Below are positions 18,231 to 63,839 of a stretch of DNA of 64,000 bases, piece after piece. The position numbers and the translations under genes were made by a program. This DNA comes from Infirmifilum sp. (GTDB lineage Archaea; Thermoproteota; Thermoprotei; Thermofilales; Thermofilaceae), in assembly GCA_041287245.1 (NCBI GenBank), contig JBEULP010000058.1, positions 1 to 64,000 on the forward strand, in the 5' to 3' direction. Every line of letters starts with the position of its first letter. Positions within the stretch are counted from its first letter, which is position 1. The notes beneath the pieces were generated by a model. That model did not search any database. It was given only the letters and a program-made list of their open reading frames with translations, and was not told the origin of the DNA.

Positions 18231-18413
18231 TTAGAATTCCTCCTCTTCTTCCTCTTCCTCCCAGCCTTCCTCCTCTTCTTCCTCCTCTTCTTCTAGGAAT
18301 TCCTCTTCTTCGCCAAAGTCCTCCCATTCTTCTTCCTCTTCTTCCTCTTCGCCGAACTCTTCTTCCCATTCCTCATCTTCTTCGCTAAAGGCGTAAGGTT
18401 TCATGGTTATCAA
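18231..18413 (-). CDS. tiny hyperacidic protein
   Basis: Poly-Glu ORF punctuated by W/F; AT-rich promoter-like sequence upstream. Confidence 0.6.
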   Translation of the reverse strand: MITMKPYAFSEEDEEWEEEFGEEEEEEEEWEDFGEEEEFLEEEEEEEEEGWEEEEEEEEF

Positions 18414-31331: not shown

Positions 31332-31525
31332 ATGATGTCTGAAAAGCTGTTGAGACCTAAGGATGTTTGTGAGAGGCTTGGGATAAGCTATACTACTCTT
31401 CGCAGGTGGATTCAGGCTGGTTATATCAAGGCTGTTAAAACTGTCGGTGGCAGAGGAGCCACAAGAAAAAGAAGCTTGCAGAGGGATTCAAAAAGCTTTT
31501 AGAAGAGGTTGAGAAAAATGGTTAG
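31332..31525 (+). pseudogene. tnpA: IS607 serine-recombinase transposase with internal deletion
   Basis: MSEKLLRPKDVCERLGISYTTLRRWIQAGYIKAVKTVGG joined out of frame to RSHKKKKLAEGFKKLLEEVEKNG*; catalytic YARVS domain absent. Confidence 0.85.
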
Positions 31526-32822
31526 AGTAACAAGAACGGTTGTTGTTGAGAGCGTGAGATTGCCGAGGAAGGTGTTCAGGGTCTTCGTAGAGCTTGAAGG
31601 AATGTATAGAAATATGGTTGAGCAACTAGTCCTCTACGCTGTTAGAGAAGGTGTGAAGTCTTTTACAAAGCTTAAAGCGTCGAGATACAAGGATTTGAGA
31701 AAACTGTACCCTCTCTTGCCAAGCCACTATGTGTACACGGCGTGTCAAGACGCTAGTGTTAGGGCTAAGAGTTTTCTCAGGCTGAAGAAGCTTGGTCTTG
31801 CTGAAAAAGAGTATCCAGAGGTTAGAAGAGTCTCTATATGGCTTGACGATCACTTGTGGAAGCTGGATGGGTATACTAGAGTTAAAATCGCTACACACAA
31901 AGAGTGGATAAGTGTTGATTTGGAGCCCTATAAACAGTACTGGAGATATCTTAACGGTGGGTGGAGACTTGCTAGCGAGGCGAGGTTAAGACTGGATAGG
32001 AGGAGTAGACAGCTCATAATCCACCTAACATTTGTTAAAAATGTTGAAGAGTACGAGCCTAGAGGTTTCACAGCTGTTGATGTTAACGAGAACAACATTA
32101 CTATGCTCCTCGATGGCGATGTATTTCTCTTTGAAACAGGTTTGAAGAAAAATGTTCTCGGCTACTACTATAGGAGGATGAGAGTTCAGGAGAAATATGA
32201 TAAGTTCTATGGCGTGAATTCTAGGGTTAGGAGAAAAGTTTTGAGGAGGCTTAAAGAGAGGAAGAAGAATGATGTTAAGTGGAAGATTGCAAACATCATC
32301 GTTAGGACAGCTCATAAAAAACAGTATGCTGTTGTTTTGGAGAAACTTGGTAGATCCCCTGCTAAGAAAATGATTGGGAAAATTGAAGACAGCCAGCTTA
32401 GGCATAGAATCTATCAAGCGTCTTTCAAAGGTGTCCAGAGAGCTATTGAGGAGAAGGCTAGAGAATACGGTGTCCCAGTAATATATGTAGACCCGAGGAA
32501 CACTTCGAAGACCTGCCCGATACACAACACACCTATAATCTATAGTTCTAGGATTGGGAGGTGCAATGGAGGTGGCGAGTTGTGGCATAGAGATGTTGTT
32601 GCGTGTTGGAACATACTACTCAGAGCCCGTCTAGGCGATGGGAGCAATGCTCCAAGCCTAGACGGGTTATCTGTAGATGGGAGTCCCATGCCGTTGGGCT
32701 CGACAGCCACCCATGAACCCATAGAGATAAGCAGATCCCTATGGGCGAGGTGGAAGTCCCTGGATATGAGAGAATATAAAAGAACGTCAATGATTATCAA
32801 GGGACAAACGGCTTCCCGATAG
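31518..32822 (+). CDS. tnpB: TnpB RNA-guided endonuclease
   Basis: RuvC-I AVDVNE, RuvC-II VVLEKL, VDPRNTSKTCPIH zinc ribbon, RuvC-III HRDVVACWNI; ATG at 31518. Confidence 0.92.
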   Translation: MVRVTRTVVVESVRLPRKVFRVFVELEGMYRNMVEQLVLYAVREGVKSFTKLKASRYKDLRKLYPLLPSHYVYTACQDASVRAKSFLRLKKLGLAEKEYPEVRRVSIWLDDHLWKLDGYTRVKIATHKEWISVDLEPYKQYWRYLNGGWRLASEARLRLDRRSRQLIIHLTFVKNVEEYEPRGFTAVDVNENNITMLLDGDVFLFETGLKKNVLGYYYRRMRVQEKYDKFYGVNSRVRRKVLRRLKERKKNDVKWKIANIIVRTAHKKQYAVVLEKLGRSPAKKMIGKIEDSQLRHRIYQASFKGVQRAIEEKAREYGVPVIYVDPRNTSKTCPIHNTPIIYSSRIGRCNGGGELWHRDVVACWNILLRARLGDGSNAPSLDGLSVDGSPMPLGSTATHEPIEISRSLWARWKSLDMREYKRTSMIIKGQTASR

Positions 32823-35979: not shown

Positions 35980-36243
35980 TTGTGGTGTTTCCTGACGAGC
36001 GTGTTCCAGGATCCTACTGTTGCTACAGTAAACATCGGGAAAAATGGTCTCAGCGAGAAGGTGATTGAGGAGATAGGGAACGTCTTGAAGACCCGTGGTC
36101 TCGTCAAAGTTAGGTTGCTGAAGAACTTTCTCGATGCTTATGGGTACACGCGTGAAGATGTGGCAGTTATTCTATCCGAGAGGCTCAACGCAGAGATTCT
36201 CGGGATAAGGGGGCATGTAATAGCTTTGAAGAAGAGGATGTGA
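35980..36243 (+). CDS. yhbY: YhbY/CRM RNA-binding protein
   Basis: VNIGKNGL, GLVKVRLL, IRGH. Confidence 0.88.
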   Translation: MWCFLTSVFQDPTVATVNIGKNGLSEKVIEEIGNVLKTRGLVKVRLLKNFLDAYGYTREDVAVILSERLNAEILGIRGHVIALKKRM

Positions 36244-36253
36244 AAGTTTTCAT

Positions 36254-36357
36254 CTTTGAATTCATTCCTTTCTCATACTGTTTCTTTTGTTTTTGTTTTA
36301 GCTTTCTTTTTATTGTTGTTTTGTCTTCTCTTGATTTTTAAATGTCGCGGCGGCTTT
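36254..36357 (-). CRISPR. orphan CRISPR leader-like sequence plus single repeat (copy B)
   Basis: Minus strand GTATGAGAAAGGAATGAATTCAAAG (36278-36254) preceded by an A-rich tract with GCGACATTTAAAAATCAAG, homologous to 62083-62216. Confidence 0.6.
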
Positions 36358-36740
36358 AAGTCTTTAAGCGGGGAGACTCACGCGCTAAGGGCTCACCCCC
36401 GGCTAGTCGCGCTCGCCGTACCAGGCTGAGCAGCCCCCATCTCCCAGGGAGGGGCCACCACTCAAGGTGGGAAGGTGTGCGGGGCAGGGAGAAAAACCTT
36501 ATTTTTAGGGGTTCCCGGGATTCCCCCTATGCGCTGGTAGGCTTTGTCGGGAGCTCTGCGCCCCCCCCCCCCCCGGCTTGTTCTTCCCCCGGGCACCCTG
36601 AGGGGTTGGTGGGCGCCTGGCCGGAGGTGCATTGGGCTCATAGCCGGGGCGCCTCGGCTTGCCTGGTGGGTGAAGGGGTCACAGCTGTGCTCAGTGCACA
36701 ACCCGCCCCCTCAGTGGCTGTATAGTATATTGTTTAAACT

Positions 36741-36788
36741 CTGACCTCCTCCCCGCCCTAAAAGGGCGAGGCTTTCAGCTTATGTAAA
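36741..36788 (-). mobile_element. isolated IS200/IS605-type end hairpin (MITE/PATE-like remnant)
   Basis: Minus strand GCTGAAAGCCTCGCCCTTTTAGGGCGGGGAGGAGGTCAG: imperfect hairpin plus GGAGGTCA tail typical of archaeal IS605 ends. Confidence 0.7.
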
Positions 36789-36899
36789 TCCATTTTTGCA
36801 AAGGTGGCATATGACCACGTGGTCCTCGATAGTAAGAAAAATTAACCCCACCGCCGGATTACGCGCGCCTCAAGGCAGCCTCCCGGGCCACGAAGGAAG

Positions 36900-36972
36900 A
36901 GGAGCTTAGGGGCAGGCTGTACGAGCTTATAACGAAGCTACAGCTATTAGCAACACAGCTGTAACAATAAAA
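36900..36972 (+). repeat. dispersed 73-bp repeat, copy 1
   Basis: 59/73 ungapped identity (hand count) to 44452-44524. Confidence 0.8.
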
Positions 36973-36978
36973 TTTTTT

Positions 36979-37755
36979 CTATCGCGCATCAACTAGCCTC
37001 AAGTAACGTATGTAGCCGAAGTCGAAGATACCCGCATCTAAATCAACAGCGTATGCCCTAAAATTCTCAATATTTGCTTCGCGGAGAAGGGGGGATAGGA
37101 GACTTCTTTCAATGTTAACCTCCGTACCAGGCATTAGGGGGCTGAGGGCTGGCAGTACTAAAACCCTCTTCCCCATGTATTCTCCATCGAGTAGAGCTTT
37201 AAGCTTCACTCGGGCACCCAACTCGTCGCGTAAGGTTAAAGCTGGGTGTTCATGCCCCATCACTATTGTCTTAACTTTCTCTTCAAACCCTTCTATAGGC
37301 AACGGTTTGTGTCCATGGAATAAAAGGATTTCACCCTCTAGGAGGTAGGGGTCATGCAATGGAATGTTCATTTTCTTCAACAGCGATATAAGATAGTTGT
37401 CATGATTACCGCGCACAACATCTATTTTCAACTTAAGATCCTCGAGGAGATAAGATAGGAGCTCGCTAGTCTCACGCCACTCCTGCCTTGTAACATCGCC
37501 GAACTCGTGCTTTATGTCGCCCAGCAAAATTATCCTCGAGGCGGCGGTCTCGTCGACCATCCTAGCTAGCATCTCTCGTATCTCCGAGGCTTGAACGGGC
37601 GGGATGAAAATCCCATCCTCCGAGAGAGCCTCCTCATAACCTATGTGTAGATCCGCAACCACAAGAGCATTAAGCCTTTTCAAGTAAAGCCCAAGACCCA
37701 CTATCTCCAAGTCCTTTGACAGGGCTAGACGAGGGACTCCTATGGACTCAGGCAT
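36979..37755 (-). CDS. calcineurin-like metallophosphoesterase
   Basis: ADLHIGYE, LGDIKH, RGNHD, HGH, GHEHP. Confidence 0.9.
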   Translation of the reverse strand: MPESIGVPRLALSKDLEIVGLGLYLKRLNALVVADLHIGYEEALSEDGIFIPPVQASEIREMLARMVDETAASRIILLGDIKHEFGDVTRQEWRETSELLSYLLEDLKLKIDVVRGNHDNYLISLLKKMNIPLHDPYLLEGEILLFHGHKPLPIEGFEEKVKTIVMGHEHPALTLRDELGARVKLKALLDGEYMGKRVLVLPALSPLMPGTEVNIERSLLSPLLREANIENFRAYAVDLDAGIFDFGYIRYLRLVDAR

Positions 37756-44451: not shown

Positions 44452-44524
44452 AGGAGCATAGGGACAGGCTCTACGAGCTTATAACAGAGCTACATCTCCT
44501 AGCAGCCAAACCATAACAATAAAA
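44452..44524 (+). repeat. dispersed 73-bp repeat, copy 2
   Basis: Homologous to 36900-36972. Confidence 0.8.
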
Positions 44525-52303: not shown

Positions 52304-52328
52304 ATATCAGAAAAGAATGAATTGAAGG
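52304..52328 (+). repeat. solitary CRISPR-like repeat (copy C, no leader)
   Basis: ATATCAGAAAAGAATGAATTGAAGG, 22/25 identical to 62192-62216. Confidence 0.6.
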
Positions 52329-60815: not shown

Positions 60816-61580
60816 ATGTCGCCTGGAAAAGCCCGGGTGTTTTTTCTCGGAACATCTGGGAGCACATTCACAGAAGACAATATACCTCCTTGCATATACG
60901 TGGAGGGATACTTGTTTGACTGCCCAGCAGCCTGTCCCCAAAAGCTGAAAATGTATGGATTGCTGGACTCTCTTCATACAATTTTACTTTCTCACACACA
61001 TATAGACCATTCGCTAGGCATATATGAGCTAGCATGGCATCTGGGAACAACTCAGGCGAATAAGAAAGTGACATTGTATCTTCCTGCGAGTGAGCAGGCT
61101 CATGTTGAGCAGACCTTTAGAATTCTCGGTAAAAACTTTGCAGACAAGCTTCTGAGTTTTGTAAACATTATAGGCGTGGATTCAGGCTTGCAAAGCAATG
61201 GAATAACTGTTGTCGCGGCGAAGCATTCTGTACCGGCGTTAGGGTATCGGCTTGACCTCAACGGCACCTCCATCTGCTACACGGGTGACACGGCGCCGTC
61301 GCGTGAAATGAGTGAAGCCTTCAAGGATTGTAAACTCCTAATACATGATTCCAGCTACCCTCCTGGGGAGGAGGAGAAGGCAGCTTTAGACGGCCATTCC
61401 ACGCCGATACAGGCTGCTGAAATCGCCAAGGAATCCGGAGCCAGGATGCTTGCTCTGGTTCATTTGCCCTATGCCAGGCTCGGTAGGACTATAGATGGAG
61501 AGTTTTTAAAGGCGGCTCGCAAGATTTTTCCAAATACTATTGTGCCCAAACCGGGAGACGCTATTGATTTGGTGGAGTAA
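60816..61580 (+). CDS. RNase Z/BN-like metallo-beta-lactamase-fold hydrolase
   Basis: FLGTSG, SHTHIDH, HSVP, YTGDT, GHST, LVH. Confidence 0.82.
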   Translation: MSPGKARVFFLGTSGSTFTEDNIPPCIYVEGYLFDCPAACPQKLKMYGLLDSLHTILLSHTHIDHSLGIYELAWHLGTTQANKKVTLYLPASEQAHVEQTFRILGKNFADKLLSFVNIIGVDSGLQSNGITVVAAKHSVPALGYRLDLNGTSICYTGDTAPSREMSEAFKDCKLLIHDSSYPPGEEEKAALDGHSTPIQAAEIAKESGARMLALVHLPYARLGRTIDGEFLKAARKIFPNTIVPKPGDAIDLVE

Positions 61581-61582
61581 AG

Positions 61583-62038
61583 ATGGAGATAGCTATCCGT
61601 GAGGTGAGGCCCGAAGACCTTTTTTACATTGTCGAGATTGAAGAGAAGAGTTTTGGGGTGGACGCTTTTAGCTTTAACTATCTTTTCTATTTATACGAGA
61701 ACTGTAAAGACTTCTTTCTAATAGCCGATTATAAAGGCTTACTAGTAGGTTATGTCATCTCCTGTCATGAGTCCGAGGATGAACTTCACGTACACAGCAT
61801 CGCCGTTGCAGACTGGTTTCGAGGACGAGGCGTGGGGAAAAAACTTATGGAGGAAACGTTAACCCTTGCCCGTCGGAAGAAAATTAAACGAGTAAGGCTA
61901 GAGGTTAAAACTGATAACACACCCGCTATAAATCTCTACGAGAAGCTAGGATTTAAGAGAAAAACTATTCTAAAAAACTTCTATGTAGACGGTAGCGACG
62001 CATATGTTTACATTTTAAATCTTGAAGCCCCATTCTAA
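61583..62038 (+). CDS. rimI: RimI/Ard1-type N-acetyltransferase
   Basis: SIAV..FRGRGVG, LEV..N..AINLYEKLGF, FYVDGSDA. Confidence 0.9.
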   Translation: MEIAIREVRPEDLFYIVEIEEKSFGVDAFSFNYLFYLYENCKDFFLIADYKGLLVGYVISCHESEDELHVHSIAVADWFRGRGVGKKLMEETLTLARRKKIKRVRLEVKTDNTPAINLYEKLGFKRKTILKNFYVDGSDAYVYILNLEAPF

Positions 62039-62082
62039 ACTAGTCTCAGTGCTCGTGGTTATTATTTCCAAACTGTATCGCC

Positions 62083-62216
62083 AAAGCCGCGGGCGACATT
62101 TAAAAATCAAGGAAAACAAGACACCAATAAAAAGAAAGCCAAAAAATAAAACCAAATAACCCAAACAAGTAATAAAAAACCAAGAGAAACAGTATAAGAA
62201 AAGAATGAATTGAAAG
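62083..62216 (+). CRISPR. orphan CRISPR leader-like sequence plus single repeat (copy A)
   Basis: A-rich tract with TATA-like TTTAAAAA followed by GTATAAGAAAAGAATGAATTGAAAG (62192-62216), which ends in the ATTGAAAG typical of archaeal repeats. Confidence 0.65.
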
Positions 62217-63665
62217 TCAATAGCTCTTAGCAACATATACTATTTGTCTTGCTGGAGCGCCGCACCAAGCGCACTTACCATAATTATTCTCTTGGAAGCC
62301 AATCTCGGTACCCCGGATCTTGCCCCCGTCGGTCTTTTCCTTTAAATCCATGGCGCACTCTTCCCGACCACAGAAGGGCATTCTCACCATGTATCCATCT
62401 TTAAGCGCTTTCTCAACATCCTCTCTTGTCGAAGCTTCCATAATGTGGGAGTCCATGAAGGCCTTAGCCCTTGTTTTTAGATTTTCAAGGATGTCTTTTT
62501 CGAGAGCCTCCAATTCATGTAAGAGATTTACATCATCTACCTGTTTTTTCTCCCCTGTATCCCTCCGGTAAACTGTAAGGGTGTGTGTCTCGACTTCACG
62601 TCGACCAATTTCTATGCGAATGGGAACTCCTTTCAGCTCCCAGTCGTTAAACTTCCAGCCTGGGGTATACTCTTCCCGATCGTCAATCAACACGCGATAG
62701 CCTTTGGAGGCCAATGCGTCGTAGACGTTGCGAGCCTTATCCAATACAACTTTTTTGTCTTGCTCCTTGTAGTAAATTGGCACAATCACCACTTGAATTG
62801 GGGCGACGGTGGGGGGTAAGACAAGTCCTTTGTCGTCCCCGTGAATAGCTATGAGAGCAGCCGCGATGCGCCAAACCCCCGGGCCATAGCAGGTTTGCCA
62901 AACGTGTTTTCTCGTGCCGTTTTGGTCAAGAAAAGTGACGTTAAACGCCTTTGCAAACCGCTGGCCCAGGTCATGCGTAGATGAAATCTGCAGAACCCTC
63001 CCATCCGGCATCAGAGTGTCGGCAGCATAGGTATCTTCGGCTCCAGCGAACTTATCCCAGGGGGGACGTCTAAGGAAGAGGAAGGGTATACCAAGCTTTT
63101 CCCATATAACTTTTCTCGAGTTCTCCATGTCTTCCTTAACCTGTTTCAACGCGTCCTCGTGGGTGGAAAATGCACAGTGAGCTTCAATCCAAAGAAACTC
63201 TCTTCCACGTATTAGAGGCCTAGTATTACTCTCATTCCTGTATACACTCACACTTTGATAAAGTTTTAAAGGAAGGTCTCTCCAACTCTGAATCCAGAAG
63301 CTATACATGTAGTAAAAGGCAGTCTCCGACGTGGGTCTCAGCGCAAGTCTCCGCTCTAGCTTCTCATCCCCCGCCTCAGTCACCCAGAATACCTCTGGGG
63401 AGAAACCCTTGACGTGCTCCTTTTCTCTCTCAAAGTTTTCTTCAGGTATAACTAGTGGGAAAAGCACTGGCTCATGTCCTGTCTTCTCAAGCTCTTCCTC
63501 AAAGAACCTATATATCCCCTTAATAATCCTCATGAGCCAAGGCCTATGTACGATAAAGCCTTGAACGTTATACCTCAAATCAACAAGCCCGGCTTTTAAC
63601 AGAACTTGGGTATACCACTCCGAGAAATTCTCGCTTTTTTTAACTGTAACACCCAACGACGTCAT
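62217..63665 (-). CDS. proS: prolyl-tRNA synthetase (archaeal/eukaryal type)
   Basis: FSEWY, LRPTSET, IRGREFLWIEAH, WELKGVP, AKSY C-terminus. Confidence 0.97.
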   Translation of the reverse strand: MTSLGVTVKKSENFSEWYTQVLLKAGLVDLRYNVQGFIVHRPWLMRIIKGIYRFFEEELEKTGHEPVLFPLVIPEENFEREKEHVKGFSPEVFWVTEAGDEKLERRLALRPTSETAFYYMYSFWIQSWRDLPLKLYQSVSVYRNESNTRPLIRGREFLWIEAHCAFSTHEDALKQVKEDMENSRKVIWEKLGIPFLFLRRPPWDKFAGAEDTYAADTLMPDGRVLQISSTHDLGQRFAKAFNVTFLDQNGTRKHVWQTCYGPGVWRIAAALIAIHGDDKGLVLPPTVAPIQVVIVPIYYKEQDKKVVLDKARNVYDALASKGYRVLIDDREEYTPGWKFNDWELKGVPIRIEIGRREVETHTLTVYRRDTGEKKQVDDVNLLHELEALEKDILENLKTRAKAFMDSHIMEASTREDVEKALKDGYMVRMPFCGREECAMDLKEKTDGGKIRGTEIGFQENNYGKCAWCGAPARQIVYVAKSY

Positions 63666-63735: not shown

Positions 63736-63839
63736 AGCCCCGGCCGGGATTTGAACCCGGGACCTCCGCCTTTTTGGTGCGTGGTGACCAGCAGGGCTAG
63801 TTACCAAGGCGGCGCTCCGCCAGTCTGAGCTACCGGGGC
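63736..63839 (-). tRNA. tRNA-Thr(GGT) with 30-nt canonical 37/38 intron (63772-63801)
   Basis: GCCCCGG/CCGGGGC acceptor stem, CCGCC-TTGGTA^A-GGCGG anticodon arm, TTCAAAT T loop; TTGG/CCAA central BHB helix. Confidence 0.93.

Follow-up and report, generated by a model that had tools for sequence, protein, structure and literature searches.

In the 64,000-nt stretch of Infirmifilum DNA analysed in this study (the window), rimI, which encodes a GNAT acetyltransferase (61583..62038, plus strand; TIGR01575), and proS, which encodes an archaeal-type prolyl-tRNA synthetase (62217..63665, minus strand; TIGR00408 above cut-off), converge on a 134-nt unit (62083-62216, 59% A) that the first-pass annotation had described as an orphan CRISPR leader with a solo repeat ending where the proS stop codon starts, at 62217; both the unit and its abutment on that codon are as described. 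An A-rich CRISPR leader (62083..62191, plus strand), recognised by its homology to the leaders on contigs C35 and C85, is followed by a solo CRISPR repeat on the same strand (62192..62216) with a single mismatch, at position 5, to the array repeat. The leader contains a TTTAAAAA box at −93 (62099..62106, plus strand), a candidate TATA box common to the sister solos and the C35 leader, as well as CAAATAA at −39 (62153..62159, plus strand), at the position where array leaders carry TAAATA. The repeat ends in an intact 8-nt ATTGAAAG (62209..62216, plus strand), the would-be crRNA 5′ handle, as the annotation had noted, and a Cas6 is encoded in the genome; the proS 3′ trailer would begin with the complement of this octamer.

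Alignment to the relative G007 showed that, although the 134-nt sequence was given correctly, the inserted unit is really 194 nt long and starts at 62023 (62023..62216, plus strand): it is a clean insertion from which no host base has been lost. The left flank ends in AAATCT, with at most one T duplicated and hence an ambiguity of 1 nt at the left edge, while on the proS side host DNA follows the repeat without an intervening base (0 nt), and from there on proS is collinear with its orthologs; synteny is preserved on both sides. The distal 60 nt (62023..62082, plus strand) gave no clear homologue in the genome or in the fetched loci (best E 0.27) and are possibly a diverged distal part of the leader. 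The insertion supplies the last codons of rimI (EAPF, stop); the G007 ortholog ends in LNLQ. A 73-aa minus-strand ORF (62015-62236) overlaps the unit; we attribute it to the T-richness of that strand. As RNA, the solo repeat has no predicted structure, the predicted folding of unit transcripts gave z-scores of −1.3 and −0.9, and an Rfam scan of the window returned tRNAs only. One of these, a 104-nt match at 63736-63839 on the minus strand, was found by Rfam and missed by ARAGORN, and likely contains an intron. Elsewhere in the window we observed a 437-aa ORF (31509-32822), which we take to encode a TnpB-family-like protein, and a low-complexity purine/pyrimidine repeat tract (18234-18380) that likely encodes a Glu-rich stretch on the minus strand.

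The assignment of the unit to the CRISPR system of this lineage is supported by both of its parts. The repeat is one base off the C19 and C35 repeats and two off that of C85, and differs from the array repeats of C19, C85 and C17 by 1-2 mismatches. Against the C35 leader, beside csa3, the leader of the unit shows 78% identity over 97 nt, and against the C85 leader, beside cas1, 73% over 81 nt; the local alignment scores are 86 and 55, with shuffle maxima of 34 and 24. Genome-wide, 19 sites lie within 4 mismatches of the array repeat, compared with none in any of three block shuffles and none in a reversed control, and the matches are thus not due to chance. Nine of the 19 belong to three small arrays (five repeats on C85, two each on C17 and C19) and ten are solos, located on C6, C19 (minus strand), C35, C64, C70, C80 and C96, with three on the contig of the window; the unit beside proS thus has nine solo counterparts. 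In the congeners G001 and G005, this repeat family makes up arrays with as many as 138 units. Two hallmarks of array membership are thus present at proS, namely a repeat near-identical to a cas-linked repeat and an AT-rich homologous leader, while a second repeat with a spacer in between is absent.

No cas gene had been noticed in the window, and genome-wide searches for cas1, RAMP and cas6 gave no match on its contig. The cas genes sit on other contigs (C18, C35, C85 and C91) and comprise the type I-A genes cas1, cas2, cas3′, cas3′′ (a match below the family cut-off), cas4, csa1, csa3, cas5a and cas7, a III-B set of cmr1-6 (cmr3 below its cut-off), a III-D-like module, csx1, and cas6, which was found by PF10040, PF01881 giving no match.

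The statement that no second repeat accompanies the unit stands as far as an array partner is concerned, the best downstream match (offsets 20-69) having 13 mismatches; it overlooked a third solo in the window, with 2 mismatches and without an A-rich leader (52304..52328, plus strand), upstream of which a 31-nt piece weakly resembles 36370-36399 (E 0.05). The inverted homologue 26 kb away was located at 36254-36357. It consists of a repeat with 3 mismatches (36254..36278, minus strand), whose end is separated by 10 nt from the stop codon of a yhbY-like gene that converges on it (35980-36243; TIGR00253 below cut-off), and a shortened sister leader from which the −40 box region is deleted (36279..36357, minus strand), and it belongs to an insertion of ~700 nt that is absent from G005, G006 and G007. 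Upstream of this leader lie 89 GC-rich nt (36357..36445, minus strand) that are 98.9% identical to C64:15704-15792; the GC-rich stretch (36357-36480) is better conserved than the adjoining leader, has no significant fold (z −0.5) and finds no match in 22 family genomes. The copies at 36 kb and on C64 have two repeat changes and the upstream 89-mer in common, and their sequences diverge immediately beyond the repeat, which points to a leader with a single repeat as the unit of copying. Also within the ~700-nt insertion are a ~36-nt multi-copy motif (36740-36790) present on at least six other contigs, which we take to be an IS200/IS605-like end, and an 84-nt unit (36900-36983) that recurs at 44452 and on C49, C61 and C70.

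The remaining solos occupy varied settings. Those on C96 and at 52304 lie in short variable intergenic gaps and that on C64 at a synteny break (L075 and L076 failed to align across the C64 repeat and were left out of the junction reading). On C70 (2571-2622), a leaderless repeat followed by ~27 nt is inserted between convergent genes, whose junction in G005, G006 and G007 is tight; host sequence meets the repeat within about 1 nt at the left junction, and a mismatch in the repeat provides the stop codon of the upstream gene. On C35 and C17 the repeat passes straight into ORFs without a family match, and these joins may be spacer-to-protospacer chimeras. At L062:4939-5311 and L064:2685-3053, repeats lead directly into ORFs of this kind, the stop of which falls within the repeat; these may be spacer-to-protospacer assembly chimeras or recombinants. 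In 27 orthologous stretches of relatives, covering eight of the ten solo sites and the DHH site described below (C80 was not among the sites compared), no repeat was found, the best match having 7 mismatches. As a raw count, six of the ten solos point at a convergent gene that ends within 25 nt.

At the rimI/proS junction itself, six of six relatives, with ~70-75% identical DNA, lack any repeat, and thus also the full array that had been considered as a possible counterpart. In five of them (G001, G004, G006, G007 and G010), rimI and proS overlap at their stops by 4-14 nt, and the sixth, G005, carries an independent, repeat-free 2.9-kb insert with two genes (L026:1832-4762). By eye, these two genes look glycosyltransferase-like and ATPase-like. 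The terminal residue of ProS is Tyr in all seven genomes, and the tail of RimI varies freely; the terminal Tyr of ProS is important for catalysis. Given the ancestral gene overlap and this conserved Tyr, few sites would tolerate an insertion: it is likely accepted only beyond the proS stop, within a handful of rimI codons, and its position at that stop is therefore no strong evidence of design. The leader found no match in 22 other genomes of the family, the nearest of which has ~70-75% identical DNA, and a metagenome scan with RimI returned only eight distant loci (24-43% identical). The leader motif gave eight matches across genome contigs, in unrelated taxa and taken as chance, and the repeat pattern no exact match in viral contigs. 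At the distance of the nearest relative, an arrival without spacers is inseparable from a later collapse.

The leaders of arrays and solos differ in their conserved boxes. Among 11 leaders that precede arrays of at least two repeats (the L047 leader was left out), 10 have TAAATA at −36 to −41, and its conservation suggests a promoter. This position reads CAAATA at −39 in the proS unit and is deleted in the copies at 36 kb and on C64, leaving none of the three intact; the CAAATAA at 62153-62159 is likely a damaged promoter box. These three solos share one leader type, with A-rich leaders of ~109, 79 and 51 nt and with 1, 3 and 4 repeat mismatches, respectively, and, read from their sequences, the shortening of the leader and the changes in the repeat form a decay series in which the sister copies are eroding. 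Counter to decay, the repeat at proS has only the one mismatch and its handle is intact. The TTTAAAAA box is retained in all three (at −93, −64 and −36) and in the C35 leader, and persists in the sister solos even where the remaining leader is gone. The plus strand contains no run of four T between 62023 and 62300, and read-through from rimI, or the TTTAAAAA box, could therefore still transcribe the repeat. In the opposite direction, the proS trailer, read from the reverse strand of the unit, is 63% T over 110 nt with seven T-runs.

Dispersal of leader-repeat units is a habit of the lineage. The single-contig complete genome G001 contains eight such units with 1-11 repeats and one long leader family (L038-L043). 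Of three that were tested, one lies at a short gap that is repeat-free in G004 and two at synteny breaks; the G001 solo is possibly an old array in which the repeats have decayed. Two of the G001 leader-repeat units are placed back to back, ~900 nt apart. Several arrays of the relatives end in a degenerate repeat followed by a trailer. When the repeat core was compared with 19 other family genomes, one had arrays and one a single weak match, which makes a wider census impossible with this repeat.

A further structure was found on C19, where a DHH/DHHA1 gene (C19:46411-47225, L057) is interrupted at C19:46793 by repeat-spacer-repeat. The gene is intact in all three relatives that aligned (L069 and L070 failed to align across the repeat and were left out of the junction reading). 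The spacer consists of a stretch of the interrupted gene in inverted orientation, and read backwards it encodes RVALYGCIGDYA, the next residues of that gene, with alignment scores of 41-47 against shuffle maxima of 32-36; ~60 further DHH residues are without a match in the assembly. Host sequence runs right up to the first repeat (0 nt) and resumes within 0-1 nt of the end of the second. A comparison of 267 spacers with the genome gave only self-array matches and matches of 15-20 nt, the inverted DHH match having been found separately. The structure may be a genuine scar, or the assembly may have followed a path through spacers derived from the genome itself; in both cases, spacers of host origin are involved. 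Together with the base-exact joins between host and repeat, it is a more surprising lead than the proS unit. Read support covers the proS site only and extends neither to the 36-kb copy nor to the DHH structure.

Among the origins and roles that had been put forward for the proS unit, a naive array seed fits best; a regulatory guide or a decoy is not supported for a unit that is lineage-specific and one of ten solos, whose box is altered and whose sisters are decaying. On balance, we consider the unit to be probably a spacerless copy of the genome's own leader and first repeat, that is, an array seed that is likely inert and decaying and has no selected guide function. It would have arrived as leader plus one repeat, and the chromosome end on the proS side would have become attached at the repeat's 3′ end in the manner of a spacer, either in a stray Cas1-Cas2 half-site reaction or by recombination between a spacer and its protospacer, both of which would give the same exact junction; the leader side would then have been closed by end-joining. 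Host DNA does start exactly at the repeat end at proS (0 nt), as in a Cas1-Cas2 product, the junctions that could be read being those at proS, in the DHH gene and on C70. In vitro, the P. furiosus enzymes yield half-site products at both repeat borders on a leader-single-repeat substrate (PMC6698737). A join at the spacer side of the repeat would produce leader-repeat-host, as at proS, a join at the leader side host-repeat-stub, as on C70, and both joins together the DHH structure. The bases retained before the proS junction are TCT, which has the form of a TCN motif of type I-A systems and may or may not represent a PAM here: the spacers of two G005 arrays gave no match in phage records from which the PAM of this system could be derived. 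The unit would have survived at a site just outside the proS stop where it harms neither gene, and it would provoke no autoimmunity, given that what lies in the place of a PAM is the repeat, which agrees with the crRNA handle. Read on the reverse strand, the unit would provide proS with a U-rich 3′ trailer and possibly a terminator. A bolder generalisation, which we regard as unlikely, is that the Cas1-Cas2 of this lineage joins broken chromosome ends to repeats, in which case the scattered CRISPR pieces would be break-patching scars, those with a leader would represent the birth of arrays, and each would by its geometry be an autoimmunity-proof Cmr guide directed at the mRNA of the adjacent gene.

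Of the alternatives, an array that collapsed in place is a tentative possibility: a leader-repeat unit would have landed, gained spacers and lost them again through recombination between its first and last repeats. The dispersed small arrays of one leader family in G001 are compatible with this, as is the C35 solo, which in a record of run X2 appears as a C35-type leader followed by two repeats where the assembly has one, so that losses, whether of spacers or in assembly, do happen in this population; the csa3-flanked counterpart of the C35 locus in G005 has 72 repeats. Precise excision of spacers is moreover reported in the Sulfolobales (PMC7951960). Yet none of the six relatives has an array or a remnant at rimI/proS, the site lacks a trailer such as follows the degenerate last repeat in several of the relatives' arrays, and a collapse leaves unexplained both the abutment of repeat and host and the changes shared by the copies at 36 kb and on C64. 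That the loss, or a chimeric path, arose during assembly is scarcely credible, even though the genome, drawn from runs labelled as hot-springs metagenome, is in 119 contigs with 5% contamination, and on C35 and C17 the repeats run into unannotated ORFs as spacer-to-protospacer chimeras would. When the contigs of three runs from one study (X1, X2 and X3, of which X1 may be the source of the assembly) were aligned to 61400-63000, contig 5 of X2 was found to span 61536-63000 in one piece, gapless and free of joints, with more than 500 nt on either side of the unit, which is therefore not a mis-assembly; in X1 and in X3 the two junctions are covered piecewise. None of the contigs of the three runs was seen to join this site to an empty allele or to additional repeats. 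The loose contig ends correspond to C35-type and C19 leaders and the flank of the C19 solo, those at 62217 being traced to that solo, and synteny is intact on both sides.

A functional role as a guide is improbable in our estimation. It would require Cas6 to cut a transcript of the unit at 62208/62209, and the resulting crRNA, loaded into Cmr, to slice the 3′ end of the proS mRNA, with Cas10 kept off by pairing between trailer and handle. Cas6 and Cmr1-6 are encoded, the handle is intact, the proS trailer is its perfect complement and six of ten solos aim at a nearby convergent gene end. In S. solfataricus, handle-matched targets are reported to be cut as RNA without DNA interference (PMC4005642, PMC7694759), handle pairing being described as shutting off all type III reactions but RNA cleavage (PMC7694759), and a terminal repeat can give rise to an active Cas12a crRNA (PMC6610086). 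However, any such insertion yields the same geometry automatically; the leader is not conserved (0 of 22 other family genomes), the genes that the solos would target are unrelated, and both the altered conserved box and the erosion of the sister copies speak against a guide. Strong silencing of an essential gene is, furthermore, reported not to be tolerated and to revert (PMC7951960), and the regulatory mini-arrays described in 10.1101/2023.03.03.530964 are conserved, reside in cas loci and pair partially with promoters. Still less probable is a Racr- or viral SRU-like decoy that titrates Cas6 or Cascade and was carried in by a mobile element. Multi-copy motifs, presumably insertion-sequence ends, do occur near the 36-kb and C6 copies. 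The solo repeat also resembles viral single repeat units (SRUs), which are reported to be solo repeats near-identical to the host array repeat (PMC8616872). The unit nevertheless sits between two core genes, has no mobile-element gene in its 194 nt and includes the host's own leader, in addition to which viral contigs contain no exact match to the repeat pattern; carriage by a virus or mobile element, which would characterise such a decoy, was not seen at proS.

Taken alone, the proS unit, as a spacerless copy of the genome's own leader and first repeat, is a modest finding, since lone repeats of this sort have been described before and most are inert. What gives it interest is that, with empty sites as controls, it captures a canonical leader-repeat unit reaching a new chromosomal place, a step that has yet to be explained for genomes rich in orphan arrays. 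Should the exact junctions and the DHH self-spacer scar both prove real, they would point to an undescribed route that links spacer acquisition, break repair and the birth of arrays. None of the titles and abstracts found, which stem mostly from outside subscription journals, describes insertions of a leader and solo repeat at core genes, of which the supplements of the SRU studies may hold cases, or a self-spacer lodged at its own protospacer.

Among known phenomena, the neo-CRISPR arrays of Nivala 2018 offer one comparison; in these, the duplicated unit is reportedly the host target site. The proS unit differs in being an imported canonical repeat with a real leader and at most 1 nt of target duplication, and no spacer flanked by a duplicated host target site is present. 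It would share with them the seeding of non-CRISPR chromosomal sites by the adaptation machinery (10.1101/148544). As one near-consensus repeat without a partner, the unit conforms to the definition of an SRU, and like the SRUs and mini-arrays of 10.1101/2023.03.03.530964 and PMC8616872 it has a single near-identical repeat with none downstream. In these sources, SRUs occur in cas loci or viruses, whereas the proS unit has a leader of ~110 nt, core-gene neighbours and the character of an empty-site insertion; most SRUs are considered spurious there, being found within cas loci while repeat-like matches are depleted elsewhere (10.1101/2023.03.03.530964).

With the regulatory systems CreA/CreR, scaRNA and the I-F1 mini-arrays (10.1101/2023.03.03.530964), the proS unit has in common that a repeat-derived handle and host-matching sequence could guide likewise without DNA cleavage. 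As described in that report, these mini-arrays have two repeat-like units in or beside a cas locus and are conserved among related loci, whereas the proS unit is without a second repeat, lies away from cas genes and is not conserved, six of six relatives, all distant, lacking it; moreover, they pair partly with a PAM-flanked promoter target, and the match of the proS unit is perfect, in cis and to the 3′ end of an mRNA. The miniCRISPR knock-downs in the Sulfolobales (PMC4005642, PMC7951960) have the same geometry, with a guide antisense to an mRNA and a flank complementary to the handle, but employ engineered spacers between two repeats, while the proS unit is known from its DNA sequence alone. 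A further parallel may be drawn with extraneous crRNAs (PMC6610086), in which the last repeat of an array and the DNA downstream of it make a working guide, such repeats tending to mutate to inactivity; these were described for Cas12a, whereas the proS unit would need Cas6 together with Cmr or Cascade, and its sole repeat is at once the first and the last.
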